Origin: Flavobacterium sp.
GTDB lineage: Bacteria > Bacteroidota > Bacteroidia > Flavobacteriales > Flavobacteriaceae
Length of the DNA stretch: 64,000 bases
Assembly (NCBI RefSeq): GCF_046155325.1
Contig: NZ_JBJXDQ010000003.1
Span: forward strand, 4,804 to 68,803
Direction of reading: 5' to 3'
A program made the position numbers and the translations under genes. Positions 151 to 33,016 of the stretch are shown here, piece after piece (the first letter of the stretch is position 1; each line of letters opens with the position of its first letter). Below the pieces are notes generated by a model, which was given only the letters and a program-made list of their open reading frames with translations, did not search any database and had not been told where the DNA came from.

Positions 151-717
151 ATGGACATCAACCCAGAAATCCAAAACGCATTTGAAATAATTCAACAAGG
201 CGGCATTATCCTCTACCCGACTGATACCGTTTGGGGAATAGGCTGCGATGCCACAAATCCTGAGGCTGTTGCCAAAATCTATACGCTCAAACAACGAGCC
301 GAAACCCAAAGTATGATAGTTCTGATGAATGGCGAAAAAATGATGTACAACGTTTTCAAAGAAATTCCAGAAGTGGCTTGGCAAATTATCGATTTATCCG
401 AGAAACCAACGACATTAATTCTTGATAAACCCCGAAATGTGGCTGCCAACTTAATTGCTTCCGATAATACTCTAGGAATTAGAATCGTCAAAGAACCCTT
501 TTGCTTTAAATTGATGGAGAAAATGAAAAAACCACTGGTTTCGACTTCTGCAAATATCTCTGGTCAGCCTACTCCTATTGCTTTTAAAGATATTAATCCC
601 GAAATTATAAAAGGTGTGGACTATGTTGTAAATTTGCACCGTGATAAAATTGGAGGAAAACCGTCTACGATTATAAAAATAACGAACGATTCTCAGGTAA
701 AAGTGATTCGGAAGTAA
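151..717 (+). CDS. tsaC: L-threonylcarbamoyladenylate synthase, short YrdC-domain-only form
   Basis: YPTDTVWGIGCDA, KxR and STSANISG motifs of the Sua5/YrdC family; 188 aa, no C-terminal SUA5 domain. Confidence 0.9.
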   Translation: MDINPEIQNAFEIIQQGGIILYPTDTVWGIGCDATNPEAVAKIYTLKQRAETQSMIVLMNGEKMMYNVFKEIPEVAWQIIDLSEKPTTLILDKPRNVAANLIASDNTLGIRIVKEPFCFKLMEKMKKPLVSTSANISGQPTPIAFKDINPEIIKGVDYVVNLHRDKIGGKPSTIIKITNDSQVKVIRK

Positions 718-24478: not shown

Positions 24479-25477
24479 TTAGAAACCGTAAACTACAGCT
24501 AATGAAATTTGCGAAGCAGATTTTGCCGGAGCTCCGTCTGAATCTTCAAATAATATTTCATCAGAATTATTATCCATTCTAAACTCAGGAATAAAAGTTA
24601 ATCCACCTGATTTTAGGTTAGCTGATAAAGTAAGAGCTGTTACTGAAGTATCAAAAGAATTCTTTTTAGATTTAAATGACTCAGCACGCAAACCTAAACC
24701 AAAATTACTAGATACAGCATAAGATGGATACAAAGCAAAACCAGTATATCCTGTATCTTCACCAACTCCAGCAAAATCAGCAGCATTTAACCCTAATTTG
24801 AATTTTTCTGAAATTTGGTAAGCAGCTGTTAAATCAATAATAGTTCCTTTAGATGAACCATCTAAGTAATTAATATAAGCAGTAAAACCCTCAAACGGAG
24901 TTAATGACAACTGAGCTCCAATGTTATTTAATCCTAAATCAGCATCTGCTTGATAAAGATTCCAGTCATTATTAAACAAACCTACCATCAAACCTACTTT
25001 GCTAGAGATAGCATAATTAGCTTTAATACCAGCATTTTGGAATGGTCCGTTGGTAAATAAATACGAAGTAGAGTAGTGTAAATTCCCTAATGGAGAAATC
25101 ACTTCATATCCTACAAATGTAGCCATATATCCAGCCGTTAAAGTTAACTTGTCAGATGCAGCATAAGCAGCATACAAGTTTTGGATGTGGAAAGATTGAC
25201 CTCCTACTTCTGGAATAGATTGCCCTGCTCCTCTAGGACCAAAAGAAACTTCACCTACAAAAGAGGTTTTACCTGTTTTTTTCTTCAACGCAATATCAAT
25301 CATACCTAAAGAAACGGAGTTTTGATCTGTTGCGAAACTAGTAGGAATTTGAGCCAATTTAGAAAAATCATACTTGTAGTACAAATCAGCAGAACCAGAA
25401 ATTTCTAGTGGTGTGTCTTGTGCAAACGTCACCGTTGTTGTAAGCGCTAAGGCTAAAATAGTAATTACTTTTTTCAT
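24479..25477 (-). CDS. Outer-membrane beta-barrel porin (DUF1597-like)
   Basis: Signal peptide; ISGSADLYY, YLFTNGPFQNAG, PEFRMD; C-terminal Phe. Confidence 0.75.
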   Translation of the reverse strand: MKKVITILALALTTTVTFAQDTPLEISGSADLYYKYDFSKLAQIPTSFATDQNSVSLGMIDIALKKKTGKTSFVGEVSFGPRGAGQSIPEVGGQSFHIQNLYAAYAASDKLTLTAGYMATFVGYEVISPLGNLHYSTSYLFTNGPFQNAGIKANYAISSKVGLMVGLFNNDWNLYQADADLGLNNIGAQLSLTPFEGFTAYINYLDGSSKGTIIDLTAAYQISEKFKLGLNAADFAGVGEDTGYTGFALYPSYAVSSNFGLGLRAESFKSKKNSFDTSVTALTLSANLKSGGLTFIPEFRMDNNSDEILFEDSDGAPAKSASQISLAVVYGF

Positions 25478-25765
25478 GTTTAATTTAATTTAATTATTAA
25501 TTGGGTTATTGATTTCTAAATTATATTACTATTATTTAGAAGTATCGAAATCAAAATTAACTTTTAGTTAGTATGAAATCTTTGTCTTTAATAATAGTTT
25601 TTAACAAATTTATTAACTTTTATTTAACCTAACCAGTTAAGAATTGTATTTTACGATAGAATTATCAATTTTCAAAAAACAGTAATAAAAAAAAATGCAA
25701 TCCGTAATTTTAGATTGAAATATTCTTAAATTGATTTTCAAGAATTCATTAAAATTTCAAAAAAA

Positions 25766-25809
25766 GCAAAAAGGGATTCATTTTAATTTAAAAATGAATC
25801 CCTTTTTGC
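25766..25809 (-). terminator. Strong terminator directly downstream of sbtA
   Basis: 19-bp perfect stem gcaaaaagggattcatttt/aaaatgaatccctttttgc. Confidence 0.8.
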
Positions 25810-25845
25810 TAGAATAAACTAATTTCAATAATTAAAAAACTTAAT

Positions 25846-26802
25846 TTAAGTCATTAAAACCACAGCATAATATAAAGGAAAACCAATGGTGATATTAAAA
25901 GGGAAAGTAACCGCTAGGGCCATTGGTAAATATAATCCCGGATTAGCTTTTGGTACTGCAATTTTCATCGCAGCTGGTACTGCAATATAAGAAGCACTCG
26001 CTGCAAGAATTGCGAAAATAAATCGATCCCCAATCTCCTGAGTAACAAATCCACTTAAGATTGCTACTAAACAACCATTTACTAAGGGAACTGCAATGGC
26101 GAATACTGATGTAAACCATCCGTTTTTTATAAAATCTGATAATTTTTTGCCACTTGTCATACCCATATCAAGTAAGAAAATCACAAGAAAACCTTTAAAC
26201 AAATCAGTTGTAAAAGGTTTAATCCCTTCTGCTTGGCTGTCACTTGCAAGCATACCAATGATTAAACTCCCTATTATAAGCAGAACACTCCCATTTGTAA
26301 AAGAGTGCTTGATGATTTCAGAAATTTTTATATCATTATTCTTTTTGAAAAAAGATATCATAACCACACCAACGATTATCGCTGGAGCTTCCATTAATGC
26401 CATTATTGCAACCATGTGCCCATTAAATTCAACTTTTTGAAGCTCTAAAAAAGAAATAGCTGTAACAAAAGTAACTGCACTAACAGAACCGTAAGCTGCC
26501 GCAATAGCGCCTGCATTATCGATGCCCAGTTTCTTTTTTATTATAAAAAAAGTATAAAAAGGAATAACAATTGCAGTCGCTACCCCAAAAAATACTGACC
26601 AAAAAACCTCCATATTAAAAGAACTGTGCGCTAACTCTTGACCTCCTTTAAATCCAATAGAAAACAAGAGATAAAGGGAGATAAATTTTGAGGAGTTTTC
26701 TGGAATTTTTAAATCACTTTTTACTTTTACAGCTATAATTCCTAAAAGAAAAAACAGTAATGCTGGGCTCGTCAAATTATCCATTAATAATGATGTATTC
26801 AT
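25846..26802 (-). CDS. sbtA: Sodium-dependent bicarbonate transport family permease SbtA
   Basis: KSDLKIP, YLLFSIGFKGG, AAAYGSVSAVTF, SASYIAVPAA, ALAVTFPFNI. Confidence 0.9.
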   Translation of the reverse strand: MNTSLLMDNLTSPALLFFLLGIIAVKVKSDLKIPENSSKFISLYLLFSIGFKGGQELAHSSFNMEVFWSVFFGVATAIVIPFYTFFIIKKKLGIDNAGAIAAAYGSVSAVTFVTAISFLELQKVEFNGHMVAIMALMEAPAIIVGVVMISFFKKNNDIKISEIIKHSFTNGSVLLIIGSLIIGMLASDSQAEGIKPFTTDLFKGFLVIFLLDMGMTSGKKLSDFIKNGWFTSVFAIAVPLVNGCLVAILSGFVTQEIGDRFIFAILAASASYIAVPAAMKIAVPKANPGLYLPMALAVTFPFNITIGFPLYYAVVLMT

Positions 26803-26814
26803 AATTCTTCTTTA

Positions 26815-27795
26815 TTAGTTACTATTAATTTTCTTATATTCAAAATGTTCTTCTTGAGCTCTGTATAATCGATCATTTATGGTTATGCCGAGTTGCTTTT
26901 CGGGAAATTTTTCAGCAAAAATTATATCAAAATGCATAGCATCTAGTTTATGCATAGCTGCATATAAATTTTTTGCGGCTTCTTCTAGATTTTCAACTGC
27001 TGATAATTCAATGTATTTATTAGTAGAAAGATATTCGTCATTATTTTTAAACAAGAGAAATCCAACATTTAAATTAATGTTATCTTTTATAGTATTGGAT
27101 ATATTATTTGAAACTATAAATTTTGTCTTAGGAGAATAATGTTTATTAATCATCCCAGGAGCATCTGGTGAGGCAGATGCAGTGTTTTTAATTTCTAAAT
27201 TTCCAATGCATTTTTCAATTTCCTCTTTAGAAATTGCACCAACTCTATACAAAACCGGTTTGTCATTTACAAAGCCAATAATTGTTGATTCAATTCCTTT
27301 ATCACAAGATCCTCCTTCTAAAATATAAGGAATTTTATCCCCTAGTTGTTTTTTGACATGATCAGAAGTTGTCGGACTGATATACCCAAAAGGATTAGCA
27401 CTAGGAGCCGCAAGAGGAAAATCTAATGATTCTAACAAAGCTAAAGCTATTGGATGCGAAGGAACTCTCACACCAACGGTAGGTTTTCCGCTAGTTACTT
27501 TATCCGAAATATTTGATTTTTTTTCCAAAACCAAAGTTAATGCTCCAGGCCAAAATCGATTGGCTAATTCATAGGCGATTGGTGGAATATTAAACGCAAT
27601 TGTATCTAAATAATCTATCGATTTTATATGCACTATCAGCGGATTAAATAAAGGACGTTGCTTGATTTCAAATACTTGCATAACAGCATTTTCATTAAAT
27701 GCATTGGCAGCCAACCCATATACCGTTTCTGTTGGAATAGCTACTACACTTCCTTTTCTTAGTAAGTCAGCAGCTATATTAATTTCGTTAGTCAT
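26815..27795 (-). CDS. sua5: Second threonylcarbamoyl-AMP synthase, full-length Sua5 type
   Basis: PTETVYGLAA, KQRPLFNPLIVH, FWPGALT, AAPSANPFG, PGMINKHYSP linker, C-terminal SUA5 domain (AINDRL-like TINDRL). Confidence 0.92.
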   Translation of the reverse strand: MTNEINIAADLLRKGSVVAIPTETVYGLAANAFNENAVMQVFEIKQRPLFNPLIVHIKSIDYLDTIAFNIPPIAYELANRFWPGALTLVLEKKSNISDKVTSGKPTVGVRVPSHPIALALLESLDFPLAAPSANPFGYISPTTSDHVKKQLGDKIPYILEGGSCDKGIESTIIGFVNDKPVLYRVGAISKEEIEKCIGNLEIKNTASASPDAPGMINKHYSPKTKFIVSNNISNTIKDNINLNVGFLLFKNNDEYLSTNKYIELSAVENLEEAAKNLYAAMHKLDAMHFDIIFAEKFPEKQLGITINDRLYRAQEEHFEYKKINSN

Positions 27796-27800
27796 AAATT

Positions 27801-28640
27801 TTATGGATTACAATAATCACAATACATTGGATCCTCTGTTTTTTTACCTTTGGGAAACATAATTTCAGAAACATAATCACATTTCATACAAGAATATAGA
27901 TTTGATTTTATCGACTTTGTTTCACTTCCACATAAGCTACAGTTCAAACCTAATACTACTGATGTTGCACTAAATCCTGGTGTAGAACATTTTGGACAAA
28001 GTGAATTGAGTTTATCTAATAATTTAAAAGCTGTATCTTTAATAACTTTCATTCGGGTAGGATTGTACATTGCCCGCATATCTGTTTCAACATAAATTGA
28101 AGTTGCTTTTAAAGTTAATTCAATATAATATTGTTTAAGGGCATCCCAACTCTGAATTCCTTTTCTAATTTCAGAAAAATTATTTTCAGTATCTTTTAAA
28201 ATTAAGGCGTGTGATGGAAAATTAATTTTATTAGCAAAATCTACAAGCTTATCAAAAGTGTAAATTATTGACCCATTAAAATTTGTTTCTAAACTAATCT
28301 CTCTGGCTGTAATCTCTAAATCATTTTTTTTATCAATAAATAGTAAAATCTCTTCATCTGCATTGGCAAAAAAGATACTCGGATGTGATCCGAAAGAACC
28401 TTCGCTAGCAATTCCTATATCACAATTAGTACAATTCATTGCCGTAAGACATTTGGCTCTAACCGTTTCTATTGAAGATGAAGTACGTTCTATTTCACCT
28501 GAAAAAGTCCCAAAATAATCAGTGTCAAAATTTTCTGGAACAAAACAATGAACACCAATACCATCTTGTAAAACTGGTGCTATTACACTTTCTTTTCCAT
28601 GCATAGTAGCAATTACTATTTTTCTACCTTCAAACATCAA
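27801..28640 (-). CDS. DUF6671-like protein with C-terminal Cys-rich zinc-binding region
   Basis: ATMHGKE, DTDYFGTFSGEIER, ASEGSFG; four CxxC pairs (CPKC, CSLC, CMKC, CDYC). Confidence 0.75.
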   Translation of the reverse strand: MMFEGRKIVIATMHGKESVIAPVLQDGIGVHCFVPENFDTDYFGTFSGEIERTSSSIETVRAKCLTAMNCTNCDIGIASEGSFGSHPSIFFANADEEILLFIDKKNDLEITAREISLETNFNGSIIYTFDKLVDFANKINFPSHALILKDTENNFSEIRKGIQSWDALKQYYIELTLKATSIYVETDMRAMYNPTRMKVIKDTAFKLLDKLNSLCPKCSTPGFSATSVVLGLNCSLCGSETKSIKSNLYSCMKCDYVSEIMFPKGKKTEDPMYCDYCNP

Positions 28641-28650
28641 ATTATGATAT

Positions 28651-28932
28651 TTAAACTAAAGTGATTTGGATAATACTATCTATTTTTATTTTCTTGACGT
28701 TTTTATCAGCATCTTTTAAAATCAGTTTAACATCTTCGATAGATTGTTTTAGATAGTCAACTCTTTTTTTTGAATGGGAAAAGTCATTCCCATTTCGAAT
28801 TTGATTACTAAAAGACTCTAATTGATGATAATTTATTTTATTATTCAATAAAGACATCAGTAATTTCAGGGCTTCTTCAGGCAAAAATTCCCCTTCTATT
28901 AATTGAAATTTGTGTTTAGTAGTATCTATCAT
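28651..28932 (-). CDS. Small hypothetical protein, first gene of the sbtA operon
   Basis: 93-aa ORF; LIEGEFLPEEA..KINYH; 10 nt from the next gene. Confidence 0.7.
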   Translation of the reverse strand: MIDTTKHKFQLIEGEFLPEEALKLLMSLLNNKINYHQLESFSNQIRNGNDFSHSKKRVDYLKQSIEDVKLILKDADKNVKKIKIDSIIQITLV

Positions 28933-28952
28933 AGTTTCTAAATTTATTTTTG

Positions 28953-29021
28953 CAAATATAGAATGAGTTATTTATAAATTATTATTTATATTTGTTATAC
29001 TAATCATAAAAAATATTTATG
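28953..29021. promoter_or_regulatory. Divergent promoters with a LysR-type box
   Basis: TATATTTG on the minus strand at 28953-28960 and on the plus strand at 28987-28994; CATAA-N7-TTATG (T-N11-A) at 29005-29021. Confidence 0.6.
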
Positions 29022-29942
29022 AACTATACGTTACATCAATTACAAATATTTTTAAAAGTTGCAGAAGTAAAAAGCATTACAAAAGCATCTGAGGAGCTAA
29101 ATTTAACCCAACCTGCGGTTTCAATTCAAATAAAAAATCTTCAAAATCAATTTGATATACCGCTAACAGAAGTTATAGGAAAACAACTTTATGTCACTGA
29201 TTTTGGCTTGGAAATTGTTGAAATTGCTAAGAATATTCTAAACGAAGTTCAAAAAATCAACTATTTAACAATGTCATTTAAAGGGATTCTATCCGGAAAA
29301 TTAAACCTTTCTGTCGTTTCAACAGGAAAATATGTAATACCCTATTTTTTATCCGACTTTTTGAAAATAAACCCAGGAATAGATTTAAATATGGACGTGA
29401 CCAATAAATTGAAAGTGATTAAAAGTCTAGAAAAGAATGAAGTTGATTTTGCTTTAGTTTCAGTACTACCAAAAAAAATAACGCTGAATTCAGAAATTTT
29501 ATTAGACAACAAATTATATTTAATAGGCAACAAAGAAGTAATTATCCCTAATAAACCTTATGGGAAATCTATCTTTAATACCATCCCTTTAATTTATAGA
29601 GAAGAAGGTTCTGCGACACGATTAATAATGGAGCAATTTTTCGAAAGAAATGAAATTAAAGCACCAATGAAAATGCAACTTACTTCTAATGAAGCAGTAA
29701 AGCAAGCTGTCATAGCAGGTTTGGGATACTCAATCATGCCCTTGATTGGGTCAAATAATGAATTAAAAAACAAGGAACTGCAAATAATTCCAGTTTTTGG
29801 TTTTCCTATTACTTCAGATTGGAGATTAGTATGGCTTAAGAACAAATCCCTAAGTCCCGTTGCGCAAGCTTATTTAGATTACATAAAAAAAGAAAAAGAA
29901 GTAATTGTCCAAAACCATTTTTCGTGGATTTACACTTTATAA
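29019..29942 (+). CDS. LysR family regulator, CbbR/CmpR-like
   Basis: YTLHQLQIF..LTQPAVSIQ HTH; REEGSATR and SNEAVKQAVIAGLG in the effector domain. Confidence 0.9.
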   Translation: MNYTLHQLQIFLKVAEVKSITKASEELNLTQPAVSIQIKNLQNQFDIPLTEVIGKQLYVTDFGLEIVEIAKNILNEVQKINYLTMSFKGILSGKLNLSVVSTGKYVIPYFLSDFLKINPGIDLNMDVTNKLKVIKSLEKNEVDFALVSVLPKKITLNSEILLDNKLYLIGNKEVIIPNKPYGKSIFNTIPLIYREEGSATRLIMEQFFERNEIKAPMKMQLTSNEAVKQAVIAGLGYSIMPLIGSNNELKNKELQIIPVFGFPITSDWRLVWLKNKSLSPVAQAYLDYIKKEKEVIVQNHFSWIYTL

Positions 29943-30265
29943 TATTCTAAAAAACAATAAATAATCAATAAAAATGCATGCCTTAAATTTCATAATAAAA
30001 CTGAAATAAATATTAAGTAGCTCATGAATCATTAAAATAATTTGTGATAATACAAAAAATAAAATTATCAATGCAAAGAAACAAGTTTCACGCTCAATCG
30101 ATAGCTATAATTATACGATAAAATCAGAATCTTCTTTTTTTACGATTCTTACGATTTAACAAATGTCGTTTTTCTAACTATTTTCCTAAAAAAGTAGATG
30201 TTAATATTATTTTAAATTTAATCCAATCGCTTTGATTTCATTTCATAAATCCTAATTTTGTTTTA

Positions 30266-30547
30266 ATGAAATTAACTGCTCAATTAGTATTATTATTTTT
30301 TATAGCCTTTCTTGTTACTCCAACTATTGTTAGTGTAATTGAGAAAAATGCAGATCTGTCATTATTTTATAGTTTTTCAGAAGAAGAAAAAACAAATAAA
30401 GATATTAAAGCCATATTTAATATTGAAGTAGCCACTACTCCAGACAATATATATCCATTGAATCATAGTTTAATACTCTCCGAGAATTTATCCAAACACG
30501 ATATAATTTCCTCCAAAATATTTATTCCCCCACCCGAACAAGTTTAA
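30266..30547 (+). CDS. Small hypothetical protein with N-terminal hydrophobic helix, upstream of SulP
   Basis: 93-aa ORF; hydrophobic N-terminus; ends IFIPPPE. Confidence 0.65.
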   Translation: MKLTAQLVLLFFIAFLVTPTIVSVIEKNADLSLFYSFSEEEKTNKDIKAIFNIEVATTPDNIYPLNHSLILSENLSKHDIISSKIFIPPPEQV

Positions 30548-30639
30548 TACATCGTCGATTTTAATTTTTAAAAATCAAATTTTTACGTTTTTTCAAAATG
30601 TGACAAAAAATCTTTGTATTCAATTTTTAGTACGGTATT

Positions 30640-32295
30640 ATGACAAAAAAACTCAATATTTTCGCCAGCCTTAAATCTGATTTTGCGTCAGGTTTAGTGG
30701 TTTTTTTGGTAGCTTTGCCACTCTGTTTAGGCATTGCAATGGCCTCAGGAGCCCCTTTATTTTCAGGTATTATTTCCGGCGTTATTGGCGGAATAGTGGT
30801 GGGTTATTTAAGTAAATCACACCTAAGTGTCTCAGGCCCGGCGGCAGGTTTGACAGCGATTGTATTAACTGCCATTACCGATTTGGGAGCTTTTGACCTC
30901 TTTTTGACAGCGGTATTTATTGCCGGACTAATTCAGTTGGCTTTGGGATTTATTAAAGCCGGAAGTATTTCGAACTATTTCCCAACCAATGTAATTGAGG
31001 GAATGTTGGCCGGTATTGGAATCATTATTATTCTAAAACAGATGCCACACGCTTTTGGTTACGACAGCGATTTTGAAGGAGATCAAGCCTTTTTCCAACC
31101 TGACGGGGGAAACACAATAACTTCTTTATTAGGCATTGTTAATTATGTTCAATTGGGAGCAATAATTATTACCGCATTATCCTTGATTATTTTAATTGCT
31201 TGGGACAGGGTTCCTTTTCTAAAGAAATTGAAACTGATTCCAGGAGCGCTTATAGTGGTGATTTTGGGAGTACTCTTGAACGAAATCTTCACCACAGCAG
31301 AAAGTTCTTTAGCCATTTCAAAAGAGCATTTGGTTTCTTTACCAATTCCATCCACTCTAGAAGAGTTCAAACAAATCATTGTAACGCCCAAATTTTCGGG
31401 TATTATGAATCCACAGGTTTGGGTTATAGGGCTGACCATTGCCATAGTAGCCTCAATTGAAACGTTGTTGTGCATTGAAGCGGCAGACAGAATGGATATA
31501 CACAAACGCTACACAGACACCAATGTAGAATTGAAAGCGCAAGGAATAGGAAACATTATCAGTTCTCTTTTTGGCGGTTTGCCAATGACGTCGGTGGTGG
31601 TTCGTACTTCGGCAAATAATAACGCAGGGGCAAAATCTAAAATGTCTGCTATAATCCATGGAATATTATTGTTGTTAAGCGTATTGATTATTCCTGCAAT
31701 ATTAAATAAAATCCCCTTGGCAACATTGGCAGCAATCTTGTTATTAGTGGGGTACAAATTAGCCAAACCCGCAACACTAAAACACTTTTGGGAAAAAGGC
31801 AAATACCAATTTATTCCGTTTATTGCCACACTATCTGCCGTTGTTTTCTCAGATTTGCTAAAAGGGGTTGCATTAGGAATGATTATTAGCGTTATTTTTG
31901 TCTTAAAAGGAAACATGCAAAGAGCCTATAAATTTAGAAAAGAAGAGTATCATGATGGAGATGTCATACACATAGATTTAGCTCAAGAAGTATCTTTTTT
32001 AAATAAAGCGGCAATTAAATCAACACTAAACGATATTCCGGAAAACTCAAAAGTAATTATAGATGCAAAAGACACTGTCTATATAGCCCATGATATTTTG
32101 GATTTAATTCATGAATTTAAAACTACCCGAGCCAAAGATGATAATATAAAAGTGAAGCTTAGAGGATTTAAAGAAGCCTATCAATTAGAAAATAGTAAGG
32201 AAACCCCAAACAAAGTTACTTTTGAACATTATTATGATGTTGCAAAAAGAAAAACCATACAAAGAGAAACCCTTTCTGAGGATTTTCTAAAATGA
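30640..32295 (+). CDS. SulP family inorganic anion (bicarbonate) transporter
   Basis: SGLVVFLVALPLCLGIAMASG, SVSGPAAG, GGLPMTSVVVRT; STAS-like C-terminus. Confidence 0.92.
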   Translation: MTKKLNIFASLKSDFASGLVVFLVALPLCLGIAMASGAPLFSGIISGVIGGIVVGYLSKSHLSVSGPAAGLTAIVLTAITDLGAFDLFLTAVFIAGLIQLALGFIKAGSISNYFPTNVIEGMLAGIGIIIILKQMPHAFGYDSDFEGDQAFFQPDGGNTITSLLGIVNYVQLGAIIITALSLIILIAWDRVPFLKKLKLIPGALIVVILGVLLNEIFTTAESSLAISKEHLVSLPIPSTLEEFKQIIVTPKFSGIMNPQVWVIGLTIAIVASIETLLCIEAADRMDIHKRYTDTNVELKAQGIGNIISSLFGGLPMTSVVVRTSANNNAGAKSKMSAIIHGILLLLSVLIIPAILNKIPLATLAAILLLVGYKLAKPATLKHFWEKGKYQFIPFIATLSAVVFSDLLKGVALGMIISVIFVLKGNMQRAYKFRKEEYHDGDVIHIDLAQEVSFLNKAAIKSTLNDIPENSKVIIDAKDTVYIAHDILDLIHEFKTTRAKDDNIKVKLRGFKEAYQLENSKETPNKVTFEHYYDVAKRKTIQRETLSEDFLK

Positions 32296-32349
32296 TTAAA
32301 TATTGAAGAAATTAGTTTAACAAATTCTTAAAATTTAACAAAACAAAAA

Positions 32350-32985
32350 ATGAGCGATTTTTATAAAAAAATATTAGATAATAACAAAAAATGGGTAGAA
32401 GCCTCTTTGGCTAATGATCCAAATTATTTTGCAGATTTAGCTAAAGGACAAACACCCCCATTATTATGGATTGGATGTTCAGACAGTAGAGTTCCAGCTA
32501 ATGAAATTATTGGAGCCAAGCCAGGTGAAGTTTTCGTTCATAGAAATATTGCCAACATGGTAGTCCATACCGATATGAATATGTTGAGCGTATTAGACTA
32601 TGCTGTAAATGTTTTGAAAGTAAAACATGTGCTTGTTTGTGGTCATTATGGCTGTGGCGGAATAAAGGCTGCAATGGGAAACGATTCCGTTGGTATCATT
32701 GACAACTGGATTAGACACATAAAAAATGTTTATCGATTACACGATGAGTACTTAAATTCAATTACTGATGAGACACAACGCTTCAATGCTTTTGTTGAAA
32801 TTAACGTCAAAGAACAAGTTTTTGATTTAGCTAAAACATCCATTGTTCAAGCTGCTTGGAAAAGAGGACAAGATTTAACACTACATGGCTGGGTTTATGG
32901 CTTAAATTCAGGTTTTGTGACCGATTTAAATGTGAATATAAGTTCAGAAAAGGATTTAGACGAAGTTTATCGATTGAGATTCTAA
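32350..32985 (+). CDS. can: Beta-class carbonic anhydrase
   Basis: GCSDSRV, HRNIAN, CGHYGCGG zinc ligands. Confidence 0.95.
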   Translation: MSDFYKKILDNNKKWVEASLANDPNYFADLAKGQTPPLLWIGCSDSRVPANEIIGAKPGEVFVHRNIANMVVHTDMNMLSVLDYAVNVLKVKHVLVCGHYGCGGIKAAMGNDSVGIIDNWIRHIKNVYRLHDEYLNSITDETQRFNAFVEINVKEQVFDLAKTSIVQAAWKRGQDLTLHGWVYGLNSGFVTDLNVNISSEKDLDEVYRLRF

Positions 32986-32988
32986 AAT

Positions 32989-33016
32989 AAAAATCGCCGT
33001 AAGGCGATTTTTTTAT
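32989..33016 (+). terminator. Intrinsic terminator
   Basis: aaaaatcgcc/ggcgattttt stem plus T run. Confidence 0.8.

Follow-up and report, generated by a model that had tools for sequence, protein, structure and literature searches.

A LysR-flanked operon with an SbtA-family permease and an accessory Sua5 in Flavobacterium suggests a route by which non-photosynthetic bacteria may cope with CO2 shortage

In this study we describe an eight-gene locus of Flavobacterium sp. in which a predicted operon ending in a gene for an SbtA-family permease lies opposite to a gene for a LysR-type regulator and beside genes for a SulP-family transporter and a beta-carbonic anhydrase (beta-CA). The locus belongs to a stretch of 64,000 nt, here called the window, which corresponds to positions 4,804-68,803 of the forward strand of contig NZ_JBJXDQ010000003.1 in assembly GCF_046155325.1 (2.75 Mb, 95.6% complete, contamination 2.8%). 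A preceding sequence-only reading had described four minus-strand genes with gaps of 5-12 nt, opposite to LysR and followed by SulP and beta-CA, and these coordinates and family assignments were verified. The operon has the order sm93-DUF6671-Sua5-SbtA with intergenic gaps of 10, 5 and 12 nt; for DUF6671 the gene callers choose the ATG at 28637, the end of the open reading frame (ORF) being listed as 28640. The features of the locus are, in window coordinates:

25765-25810, minus strand: intrinsic terminator of the operon, 36 nt past the sbtA stop, with a 20-bp stem, 6 GC pairs and a T tract
25846-26802, minus strand: SbtA-like (Sbt_1) permease of 318 aa, predicted Na+/HCO3- symporter (PF05982, 386 bits, E=1.7e-115)
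26815-27795, minus strand: long Sua5/TsaC2-type L-threonylcarbamoyladenylate synthase of 326 aa (PF01300 and PF03481)
27801-28640, minus strand: DUF6671 protein (PF20376, 328 bits)
28651-28932, minus strand: sm93, 93 aa, first gene of the operon, an ORF without Pfam match
28953-28960, minus strand: putative -7 promoter box TATATTTG of the operon (TAnnTTTG, Bacteroidota-type), read from the sequence
28973-29010, no strand assigned: operator-like block adjoining the lysR start, with the inverted repeats TTATG-N5-(C/T)ATAA and ATAAAT-N4-ATTTAT
29019-29942, plus strand: LysR-type regulator, divergent from the operon (HTH_1 and LysR_substrate)
30266-30547, plus strand: small ORF of 93 aa with hydrophobic N-terminus and no Pfam match, preceding SulP
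30640-32295, plus strand: SulP-family anion transporter (PF00916, 216.5 bits)
32350-32985, plus strand: Can-type beta-CA, cytoplasmic (PF00484, 184 bits; NF007756, 265.6 bits, cut-off 251)
32989-33012, plus strand: intrinsic terminator of the SulP-CA unit, 4 nt past the CA stop, with a 10-bp stem, 4 GC pairs and a T tract

Since sbtA is followed by a strong terminator and the CA gene by a second one, two transcription units are present. An Rfam scan of the intergenic regions delivered no family, only spurious hairpin matches below the gathering threshold on the two terminators, so that the idea of a riboswitch or other known RNA in these regions was rejected. RuBisCO (PF00016) was found neither in the window nor in the 95.6%-complete genome, and the positive controls worked; its absence from the window, which had been claimed before, thus holds and extends to the genome. 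The carbon sink of an autotrophic CO2-concentrating mechanism (CCM) was therefore not found in this Flavobacterium.

The arrangement was compared with 80 related loci, each taken with 10-kb flanks and with all ORFs clustered, and with a sample of 301 Bacteroidota genomes. A LysR gene divergent from sm93-DUF6671-Sua5-SbtA recurs in about 30 of the 80 loci, which belong to several Bacteroidota families, with median gene gaps of 2-19 nt (up to 39 nt where a dihydroorotase paralogue, DHO', or a beta-CA gene directly precedes sbtA). Metagenome contigs (L209/L210) with a DUF6671 of 72% identity to that of the window repeat the entire eight-gene layout; according to independent gene calls and Pfam labels, contigs of this type keep both 93-aa ORFs, the SulP-CA pair and even the porin gene beyond the operon. 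The arrangement, whose conservation was the subject of a check proposed earlier, is far past chance expectation. Apart from the families named here, ORF clustering of the 80 loci revealed no other family recurring around DUF6671.

Two classes of loci can be distinguished. In class I (about 40 loci), DHO', in some cases Sua5, and DUF6671 follow each other, and regulator and transporter are absent. In class II (about 30 loci), LysR is opposite to an operon of sm93, DUF6671, Sua5 and SbtA, to which may be added an isocitrate dehydrogenase (IDH) and then an sm93 paralogue in front of sm93, and DHO' and then a beta-CA between Sua5 and SbtA; the window holds a minimal class II operon. Genomes that lack DUF6671 still group a LysR and an SbtA orthologous to these (identity 58-63% and 63-70%, respectively), with LysR opposite to SbtA alone, to sm93-SbtA or to IDH-sm93-SbtA, and one of these genomes belongs to the genus of the window itself. 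As LysR-sm93-SbtA exists without DUF6671, and DUF6671-Sua5-(DHO') exists alone, there are two modules, and class II operons are DUF6671-Sua5-(DHO') modules placed within LysR-sm93-SbtA modules. DUF6671 itself is sporadic (13 of the 301 genomes), SbtA-family genes being present in 82 of them (27%). The two are associated: ten of the 13 genomes with DUF6671 carry SbtA, compared to 72 of the 288 without it (Fisher p=2e-4).

Some further observations were made on the carriers. Judged by record titles, the nearest ones (L035-L114) are mostly cold-habitat taxa, namely Psychroflexus, Psychroserpens, Polaribacter glomeratus, Maribacter antarcticus, Subsaximicrobium and Flavobacterium from glaciers and Antarctic lakes, for which either their true ecology or the sampling of nearest neighbours may account. 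A Band_7/SPFH protein is encoded first after LysR, before IDH, in part of the class II operons (L211 5190-6023, L023 10893-11660). A Pyrinomonadaceae metagenome-assembled genome (L084 7656-9404) contains a DUF6671 gene, its product 57% identical to that of the window, divergent from an SbtA-like gene which is broken into ORFs of 123 aa and 113 aa; transfer, a pseudogene or mis-binning could be the reason. Labelled as Acidobacteriota, this bin is weak as cross-phylum support, its SbtA being fragmented and its DUF6671 Bacteroidota-like. For a divergent DUF6671 representative (P0270), the contigs were too short for gene context.

The regulator is closest to LysR proteins of cyanobacterial carbon metabolism. 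Its best matches in the PDB are NdhR/CcmR of Synechocystis (5Y2V, 190.7 bits over the full length) and CmpR (5Z49, 107 bits), followed by the next LysR protein at 88.6 bits. It had previously been called CbbR-like. The CbbR model is indeed its best NCBIfam match, and NdhR/CcmR and CmpR are its nearest solved relatives, but the score of 173.7 bits does not reach the cut-off of 450, and a selenium-associated LysR model comes close with 170.5 bits; the name denotes a resemblance, membership not being established. Orthologues with about 60% identity adjoin the operon in 26 of the 31 loci containing SbtA.

The spacer next to the start of the regulator gene is nearly invariant over 48 nt in 24 loci, which belong to Flavobacteriaceae, Chitinophagaceae and unclassified Bacteroidota (consensus AAAttttTTTtATGnatancATtACAAAtATAAATAAAAAtttATgaA), and the operator-like block holds two inverted repeats of the LysR-box type. 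A position weight matrix (PWM) of this block scored 42 bits at 28973-29010, and 16 bits at the next best site in the genome. A TAnnTTTG box, which we take to be the Bacteroidota -7 promoter consensus, lies about 20 nt 5' of the first start codon of the operon, and its position is kept in the 24 aligned intergenic regions; a sigma-70 promoter scan was uninformative (53 found, 42 expected), as anticipated for Bacteroidota. From the conservation of the operator in 24 loci and its single occurrence in the genome it follows that LysR very probably controls the sm93-DUF6671-Sua5-SbtA operon and itself. We infer low inorganic carbon as the signal of the operon. In cyanobacteria, NdhR is a repressor of sbtA, bicA and ndhF3 whose co-repressors are 2-oxoglutarate and NADP+ (PMC8042125).

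The last gene of the operon encodes a distant but clear homologue of the solved SbtA. PF05982 (TCDB family 2.A.83, curated cut-off 27 bits) is matched over positions 1-307 of 308, and in a HMMER comparison the protein aligned to Synechocystis SbtA (7CYE) in two repeats with E=1.8e-27. Residues V107/S108 align with V113/S114 of SbtA, and S269/A270/S271/I273 with the segment S322-S326. In SbtA, S322 is a ligand of Na+ and S324 of HCO3-, and V113/S114 belong to the pocket (PMC12093963). Thus, the positions of the Na+ and HCO3- ligands are kept, the middle serine being replaced by alanine as in SO_3758 of Shewanella, and the earlier assignment to SbtA can be confirmed on the basis of this alignment. 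The substrate is presumably HCO3-. With 318 aa compared to 374 aa, the permease is short and has no long cytoplasmic loop, its repeats abutting around residues 154-169. No gene for a PII-like SbtB was detected in the operon by inspection of the ORFs and Pfam matches of the window.

A link to CA is seen in the related loci. Within six genes, a beta-CA is encoded in ten of the 31 SbtA-containing DUF6671 loci and in none of the 50 without SbtA (p=2.4e-5). In five loci a beta-CA gene with a leader sequence lies inside the operon, directly 5' of sbtA:

L037, 11821-12558: leader-bearing beta-CA
L055, 13241-14068: leader-bearing beta-CA
L068, 6184-6939: leader-bearing beta-CA
L070, 12281-13027: leader-bearing beta-CA
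L109, 9273-9929: leader-bearing beta-CA

The products have a hydrophobic N-terminus, and those of L037, L055, L068 and L070 a lipobox-like cysteine. They appear to be exported and paired with the transporter; the position directly 5' of sbtA would make sense if an exported CA supplied the symporter with HCO3-.

The operon Sua5 matches PF01300 (200 bits), PF03481 (96.3 bits) and TIGR00057 (199.5 bits, cut-off 123.2), the last of these models being not discriminating since it also accepts the YciO-like paralogue. In its translation the motifs KQR, SAN and PGMINKHY are present; we take KxR...SxN to be the catalytic tetrad and PGMxxxHY to be the linker motif of Sua5. It is best read from its sequence as a genuine threonylcarbamoyl-AMP (TC-AMP) synthase, present as an accessory, regulated copy. 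The genome holds three genes of the YrdC family, namely the long Sua5 of the operon, a TsaC of 188 aa (window 151-717, plus strand, with KQR and SAN) and a YciO-like protein of 206 aa. Orthologues of the short TsaC occur in 72 of the 81 genera of Flavobacteriaceae. In the phylum sample, the long Sua5 is near-universal outside this family and within it is confined to five genomes, those with DUF6671. A phylogenetic tree, in whose sample each genome has one long Sua5, places the 42 DUF6671-linked proteins in one clade (SH-aLRT 98) apart from the 20 unlinked ones, and Chitinophagaceae and Flavobacteriaceae are interleaved within this clade, which indicates transfer of the module between families. 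A housekeeping role of the operon Sua5 and of the linked pyrC-like genes was rejected because of the separate TsaC, the Sua5 clade and the second copies of dihydroorotase. Accordingly, what had been noted earlier for Sua5 stands as regards the canonical bicarbonate-using type of TC-AMP synthase, and is to be corrected in that the protein is a second, accessory copy beside the short housekeeping TsaC.

Two observations concern the other YrdC-family genes. About 0.7 kb 5' of tsaC and shortly before the start of the window, a fragment of 52 aa nearly duplicates the N-terminus of TsaC (MDLNQEIQNAFEIIQQGGIILYPTETVWGIGCDATNPEAVAKIYTLK...; C3:4226-4333, L005 1468-1626), as a partial tandem duplication or the scar of a rearrangement. 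The YciO-like gene is split over two contig ends with overlapping sequence (C160:2-280, minus strand, and C76:1-468, plus strand; L004 and L003); its product has K-G-V in place of KxR and S-I-R in place of SxN, yet passes TIGR00057.

DUF6671 is a family of about 2,100 representative clusters for which our literature search found no papers. An alignment of 35 sequences contains 73 invariant columns; among them are the eight cysteines of the C-terminal part, which form four CxxC pairs. The AlphaFold2 (AF2) model has a pLDDT of 92.9, and Foldseek matched its N-terminal domain to YjjX, RdgB, human ITPA, HcgB and Maf (probability 0.97-1.0, TM-score 0.28-0.52). The protein therefore models as an ITPase/YjjX/Maf-like fold followed by an 8-Cys double zinc ribbon. 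Its predicted N-terminal fold is shared with the ITPase/HAM1 (RdgB, ITPA), YjjX and Maf pyrophosphatases and with HcgB guanylyltransferase (Foldseek probability 1.0); unlike these, DUF6671 adds the zinc ribbon and has Sua5 and a dihydroorotase paralogue as partners. The motifs IATxHxKE and ASEGSFG presumably resemble those of ITPases. Profile comparisons did not recover this relation: a search of the PDB found no ITPase and only weak zinc-finger matches, Pfam at E<=10 gave DUF6671 itself and zinc-ribbon noise only, and hhalign against the genome's own Maf reached a probability of 0.08. For a comparison profile, an RdgB/HAM1 gene was sought in the genome by a regular-expression search, and none was found. 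Domain fusions were absent from the 150 best representatives, which each consist of DUF6671 alone and measure about 280 aa. From its modelled fold, DUF6671 is probably an enzyme, and it may bind or hydrolyse a nucleotide tied to the adenylate chemistry of Sua5.

The first gene of the operon, sm93, is conserved in 24 loci and its product has no match in Pfam. The AF2 model (pLDDT 90.2) consists of a strand, a long helical hairpin and a second strand, and a fold search found no structural match at E<0.05; the idea of a PII/SbtB-like protein was rejected as this search was empty. Of all genes, sm93 is the most faithful partner of SbtA. Since it accompanies SbtA even in LysR-sm93-SbtA loci where DUF6671 is lacking, its product presumably assists or regulates the transporter. 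A family of paralogues, about 80 aa long except for the 107 aa of L183, shares the motif xLxxGxFSxxE...KIxFHE and occurs either in tandem with sm93 or in its place beside SbtA:

L036, 9468-9707: sm93 paralogue
L041, 9465-9704: sm93 paralogue
L056, 9468-9707: sm93 paralogue
L098, 6131-6373: sm93 paralogue
L106, 1476-1718: sm93 paralogue
L177, 7090-7335: sm93 paralogue
L183, 7630-7953: sm93 paralogue

In many of the related operons, DHO' and an NADP-dependent IDH are added, both being absent from the window. DHO', an amidohydrolase linked to DUF6671, passes the dihydroorotase equivalog of NCBIfam and, as a second copy, invariably accompanies a housekeeping enzyme that has a higher score and is of the type with a carboxylated lysine (Kcx); the genome of the window has only the normal dihydroorotase, on contig C145. 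Overall, DHO' is of type III (424.7 bits to 2GWN of P. gingivalis, with the Q-V-H motif). The carboxylated lysine, invariant in type III enzymes such as 2GWN, is missing in DHO', where the otherwise invariant motif G[LI]K[LI]F is replaced by [ST]DDG. At the bridging position this motif resembles the bacterial type I dihydroorotases with their Asp-bridged metal centre (PMC9771888). By its sequence, DHO' is a hybrid of type III and type I which is not described in that classification (PMC9771888). A Kcx-free enzyme fits a role at low CO2, because the carboxylation of lysine needs CO2; equally, the motif change could be a sign of an altered substrate.

The SulP protein and the beta-CA form the second unit of the locus. 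SulP scored 136.9 bits with the BicA model NF050096 (cut-off 880) and stays likewise far below the cut-off of the DauA model; BicA (6KI1) is among its PDB homologues. About 150 residues remain after the permease domain, for which Pfam gave no STAS match at E<=0.01. SulP orthologues (about 50% identity) are found in most of the Flavobacteriaceae genera sampled, and in 22 of 30 genera a beta-CA gene lies just 3' of SulP with LysR and DUF6671 not nearby. The association of SulP with CA was the basis on which Felce and Saier (2004) predicted HCO3- transport, as cited in PMC6458275. In Acidithiobacillus ferrooxidans, can2 transcripts of the can2-sulP cluster drop as CO2 rises, and SulP-Can pairs were proposed for pH regulation (PMC6458275). 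The SulP of the window is a candidate for a second HCO3- transporter of the CA-associated kind. In the Can of the window a signal peptide is not visible. The 93-aa ORF before SulP was called as a gene and is conserved in L209/L210, L036, L135 and L144, and probably encodes a genuine small membrane protein of the SulP-CA unit. This unit adjoins the operon in the window and in L209/L210, and in another orientation in L036, L041, L056, L211 and L176; that the two are neighbours more than once may point to a functional affinity.

Two neighbouring genes should be mentioned here. Beyond the operon terminator, a BBP2/OmpL-like beta-barrel porin is encoded at 24479-25477 (minus strand), a position kept in L209 and not in more distant loci; it could offer an outer-membrane path for anions. 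A second Can-type beta-CA, 85% identical to that of the window, lies on C131:29566-30201 (plus strand), divergent from a LysR gene (28392-29333, minus strand) whose product is OxyR-like by eye. This gene could be a recent paralogue or belong to the contaminating assembly fraction (2.8%).

The best reading of the locus, in which we place about as much belief as doubt, is a regulated operon for the supply of inorganic carbon, with an inserted Sua5-DUF6671 module. A LysR protein of the NdhR/CmpR/CbbR type would bind the putative operator, which overlaps the divergent promoter, and control an operon whose last gene encodes an SbtA-family Na+/HCO3- symporter, with sm93 probably acting as its accessory or regulatory partner. 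DUF6671 and a Sua5 of its own long subfamily, inserted between sm93 and sbtA, would be expressed whenever the transporter is. Sua5 would turn HCO3-/CO2, threonine and ATP into TC-AMP as a second, conditionally expressed copy alongside the short housekeeping TsaC, and DUF6671, as a predicted zinc-ribbon enzyme of the ITPase fold, would most likely bind or hydrolyse a nucleotide linked to the Sua5 chemistry. The small ORF, SulP and Can, with their own terminator, would form a pair for HCO3- transport and equilibration that is juxtaposed and not demonstrably co-regulated. As a whole, the locus would sustain bicarbonate-dependent steps when inorganic carbon is scarce, and in relatives the operon would add the Kcx-free dihydroorotase, the NADP-dependent IDH and an exported CA.

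A wider version of this reading is a CO2-scarcity stimulon of heterotrophic Bacteroidota under an NdhR-like LysR, combining import, internal CO2 and enzymes that replace others at low CO2; we put it forward tentatively, as possible rather than probable. The import arm would consist of SbtA and its new helical partner protein, sometimes supplied by an exported CA, and in the internal arm NADP-dependent IDH would yield CO2 and 2-oxoglutarate. The replacement enzymes would be the Kcx-free dihydroorotase, a Sua5 dedicated to N6-threonylcarbamoyladenosine (t6A) and DUF6671, the latter as a new zinc-ribbon enzyme of the ITPase fold that acts on a nucleotide arising in threonylcarbamoyl-adenylate chemistry as a by-product or intermediate.

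Several points weigh against the proposed carbon-supply operon. SbtA-family proteins are present in 27% of the Bacteroidota genomes and their substrate beyond autotrophs may be a different one; a Shewanella homologue has been tied to formate tolerance (PMC12093963). The regulator stays below the CbbR cut-off. The DUF6671-Sua5/DHO' module was found in about 50 loci without SbtA, LysR or CA, so that its function does not require the transporter. The ITPase-like assignment of DUF6671 comes from Foldseek at TM-scores of 0.28-0.52, without support from sequence profiles. The window is also without the parts that speak most for a CO2 theme, namely a Kcx-free dihydroorotase, IDH and an exported CA. 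Finally, SulP-CA is a separate, widely conserved and already known unit, and a PWM search of the whole genome found no operator motif upstream of it. The sequence-only reading had proposed one regulon over all eight genes; this was not borne out, SulP-CA being an independent unit without operator, and was dropped, as the motif is confined to the spacer between lysR and the operon.

The main rival, which we consider rather unlikely, assigns DUF6671, the Sua5 subfamily and, in relatives, the altered dihydroorotase to a nucleotide or carbamoyl pathway of their own, for the clean-up, salvage or repair of threonylcarbamoyl-adenylate or t6A nucleotides or for the synthesis of ureido compounds. The permease would then carry a substrate or product of this pathway or a small anion such as formate, instead of bicarbonate. 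The occurrence of the module alone in about 50 loci would be expected, as would a single clade of linked Sua5 proteins which moves between families together with DUF6671, a DUF6671 fold predicted to be that of house-cleaning NTP pyrophosphatases, and a changed metal-bridging residue in DHO' that makes a new substrate possible; the effect of the Shewanella SbtA homologue on formate tolerance (PMC12093963) points in the same direction. On the other hand, the enrichment of CA, the exported CA 5' of sbtA and the neighbouring SulP-CA pair are left unexplained, and so are the NdhR/CmpR-like regulator and the LysR-sm93-SbtA loci without the module. Moreover, Sua5 keeps every canonical motif of TC-AMP synthases, and neither fusions nor further pathway genes were found nearby in the 80 loci and among 150 DUF6671 representatives.

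It is improbable, in our opinion, that the operon serves Na+ and pH homeostasis in alkaline, saline or cold-brine habitats, with symport and CA buffering the cytoplasm and Sua5 and DUF6671 as passengers. This explanation could draw on the Na+-coupling of cyanobacterial SbtA (10.1101/2024.05.07.593039), on the pH regulation proposed for SulP-Can pairs (PMC6458275), on the more frequent occurrence of SbtA and HCO3--type SulP in high-pH growers (PMC10880623) and on the many carriers that belong, by record titles, to sea-ice, brine or glacier genera. It leaves unexplained, however, why Sua5, DUF6671 and the Kcx-free dihydroorotase should be tightly linked and transferable together; the family of the regulator is associated with carbon status and not with pH (PMC8042125), and the habitat pattern may stem from nearest-relative sampling. 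That unrelated housekeeping genes came together by chance is very improbable indeed: the families of Sua5, CA, SulP and LysR are all common in bacteria and AT-rich intergenic DNA readily gives apparent motifs, but order, orientation and gaps (median 2-19 nt) are kept in about 30 loci from several families, 24 loci share the operator, which is single in the genome, the associations are significant (p=2e-4 and p=2.4e-5) and the operon Sua5 is not the housekeeping copy.

In comparison to known systems, the inorganic-carbon reading of the operon comes closest to the cyanobacterial low-CO2 regulon of NdhR (CcmR) and CmpR (sbtA-sbtB, bicA, cmp). Shared with it are a LysR protein related to NdhR/CmpR, an SbtA-family transporter with the ligand positions, a SulP transporter and a CA close by, and a regulator gene adjoining its target with a conserved operator. 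In contrast to cyanobacteria, the host is a heterotroph without RuBisCO and hence has no carboxysome CCM; PII-like SbtB and the long loop of SbtA are lacking, the unrelated helical sm93 being the partner, and Sua5 and DUF6671 have no counterpart there. A short SbtA homologue of a heterotroph, SO_3758 of Shewanella oneidensis, has the same S-A-S at SbtA positions S322-S324 as the window; it is known via formate-tolerance mutations only, and an operon with Sua5 and DUF6671 is not reported for it (PMC12093963).

As in SulP-CA pairs and fusions such as Rv3273 and can2-sulP of A. ferrooxidans, SulP is directly followed by beta-CA in the window; unlike in the fusions, the two are separate genes and preceded by a conserved small membrane ORF, and an adjoining LysR-SbtA operon is limited to few Flavobacterium lineages. 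The proposed purpose, HCO3- for anaplerotic and biosynthetic carboxylations in non-autotrophs at ambient CO2, is the same as for E. coli Can, growth of E. coli in air depending on CA, and for the DAB/MpsAB CO2 hydration pumps. The families in the window are SbtA and SulP symporters and not DabAB, and the transporter lies in a predicted operon with CO2-related enzymes instead of standing alone. DAB homologues are present in heterotrophs (10.1101/476713). Taken together, the SulP-CA part is ordinary and the regulator-SbtA part is a heterotroph version of the cyanobacterial pair; what is new is that Sua5, DUF6671 and sm93 take part, joined in relatives by the Kcx-free dihydroorotase and IDH.

At ambient or sub-ambient CO2, the ways in which heterotrophs supply their essential carboxylations with bicarbonate are understood in a few models only, namely the CA of E. 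coli and the DAB/MpsAB pumps. This operon and its relatives place two uncharacterised families, DUF6671 and sm93, in a functional context for the first time and lead to a testable hypothesis based on their folds. If our reading is true, heterotrophic Bacteroidota took over a regulator-transporter pair of cyanobacterial style and connected it to CO2-dependent enzymes. It would also point to t6A synthesis and enzymes with a carboxylated lysine as the first steps to fail when CO2 is short. Thus, the locus suggests a route by which non-photosynthetic bacteria may cope with a shortage of CO2.

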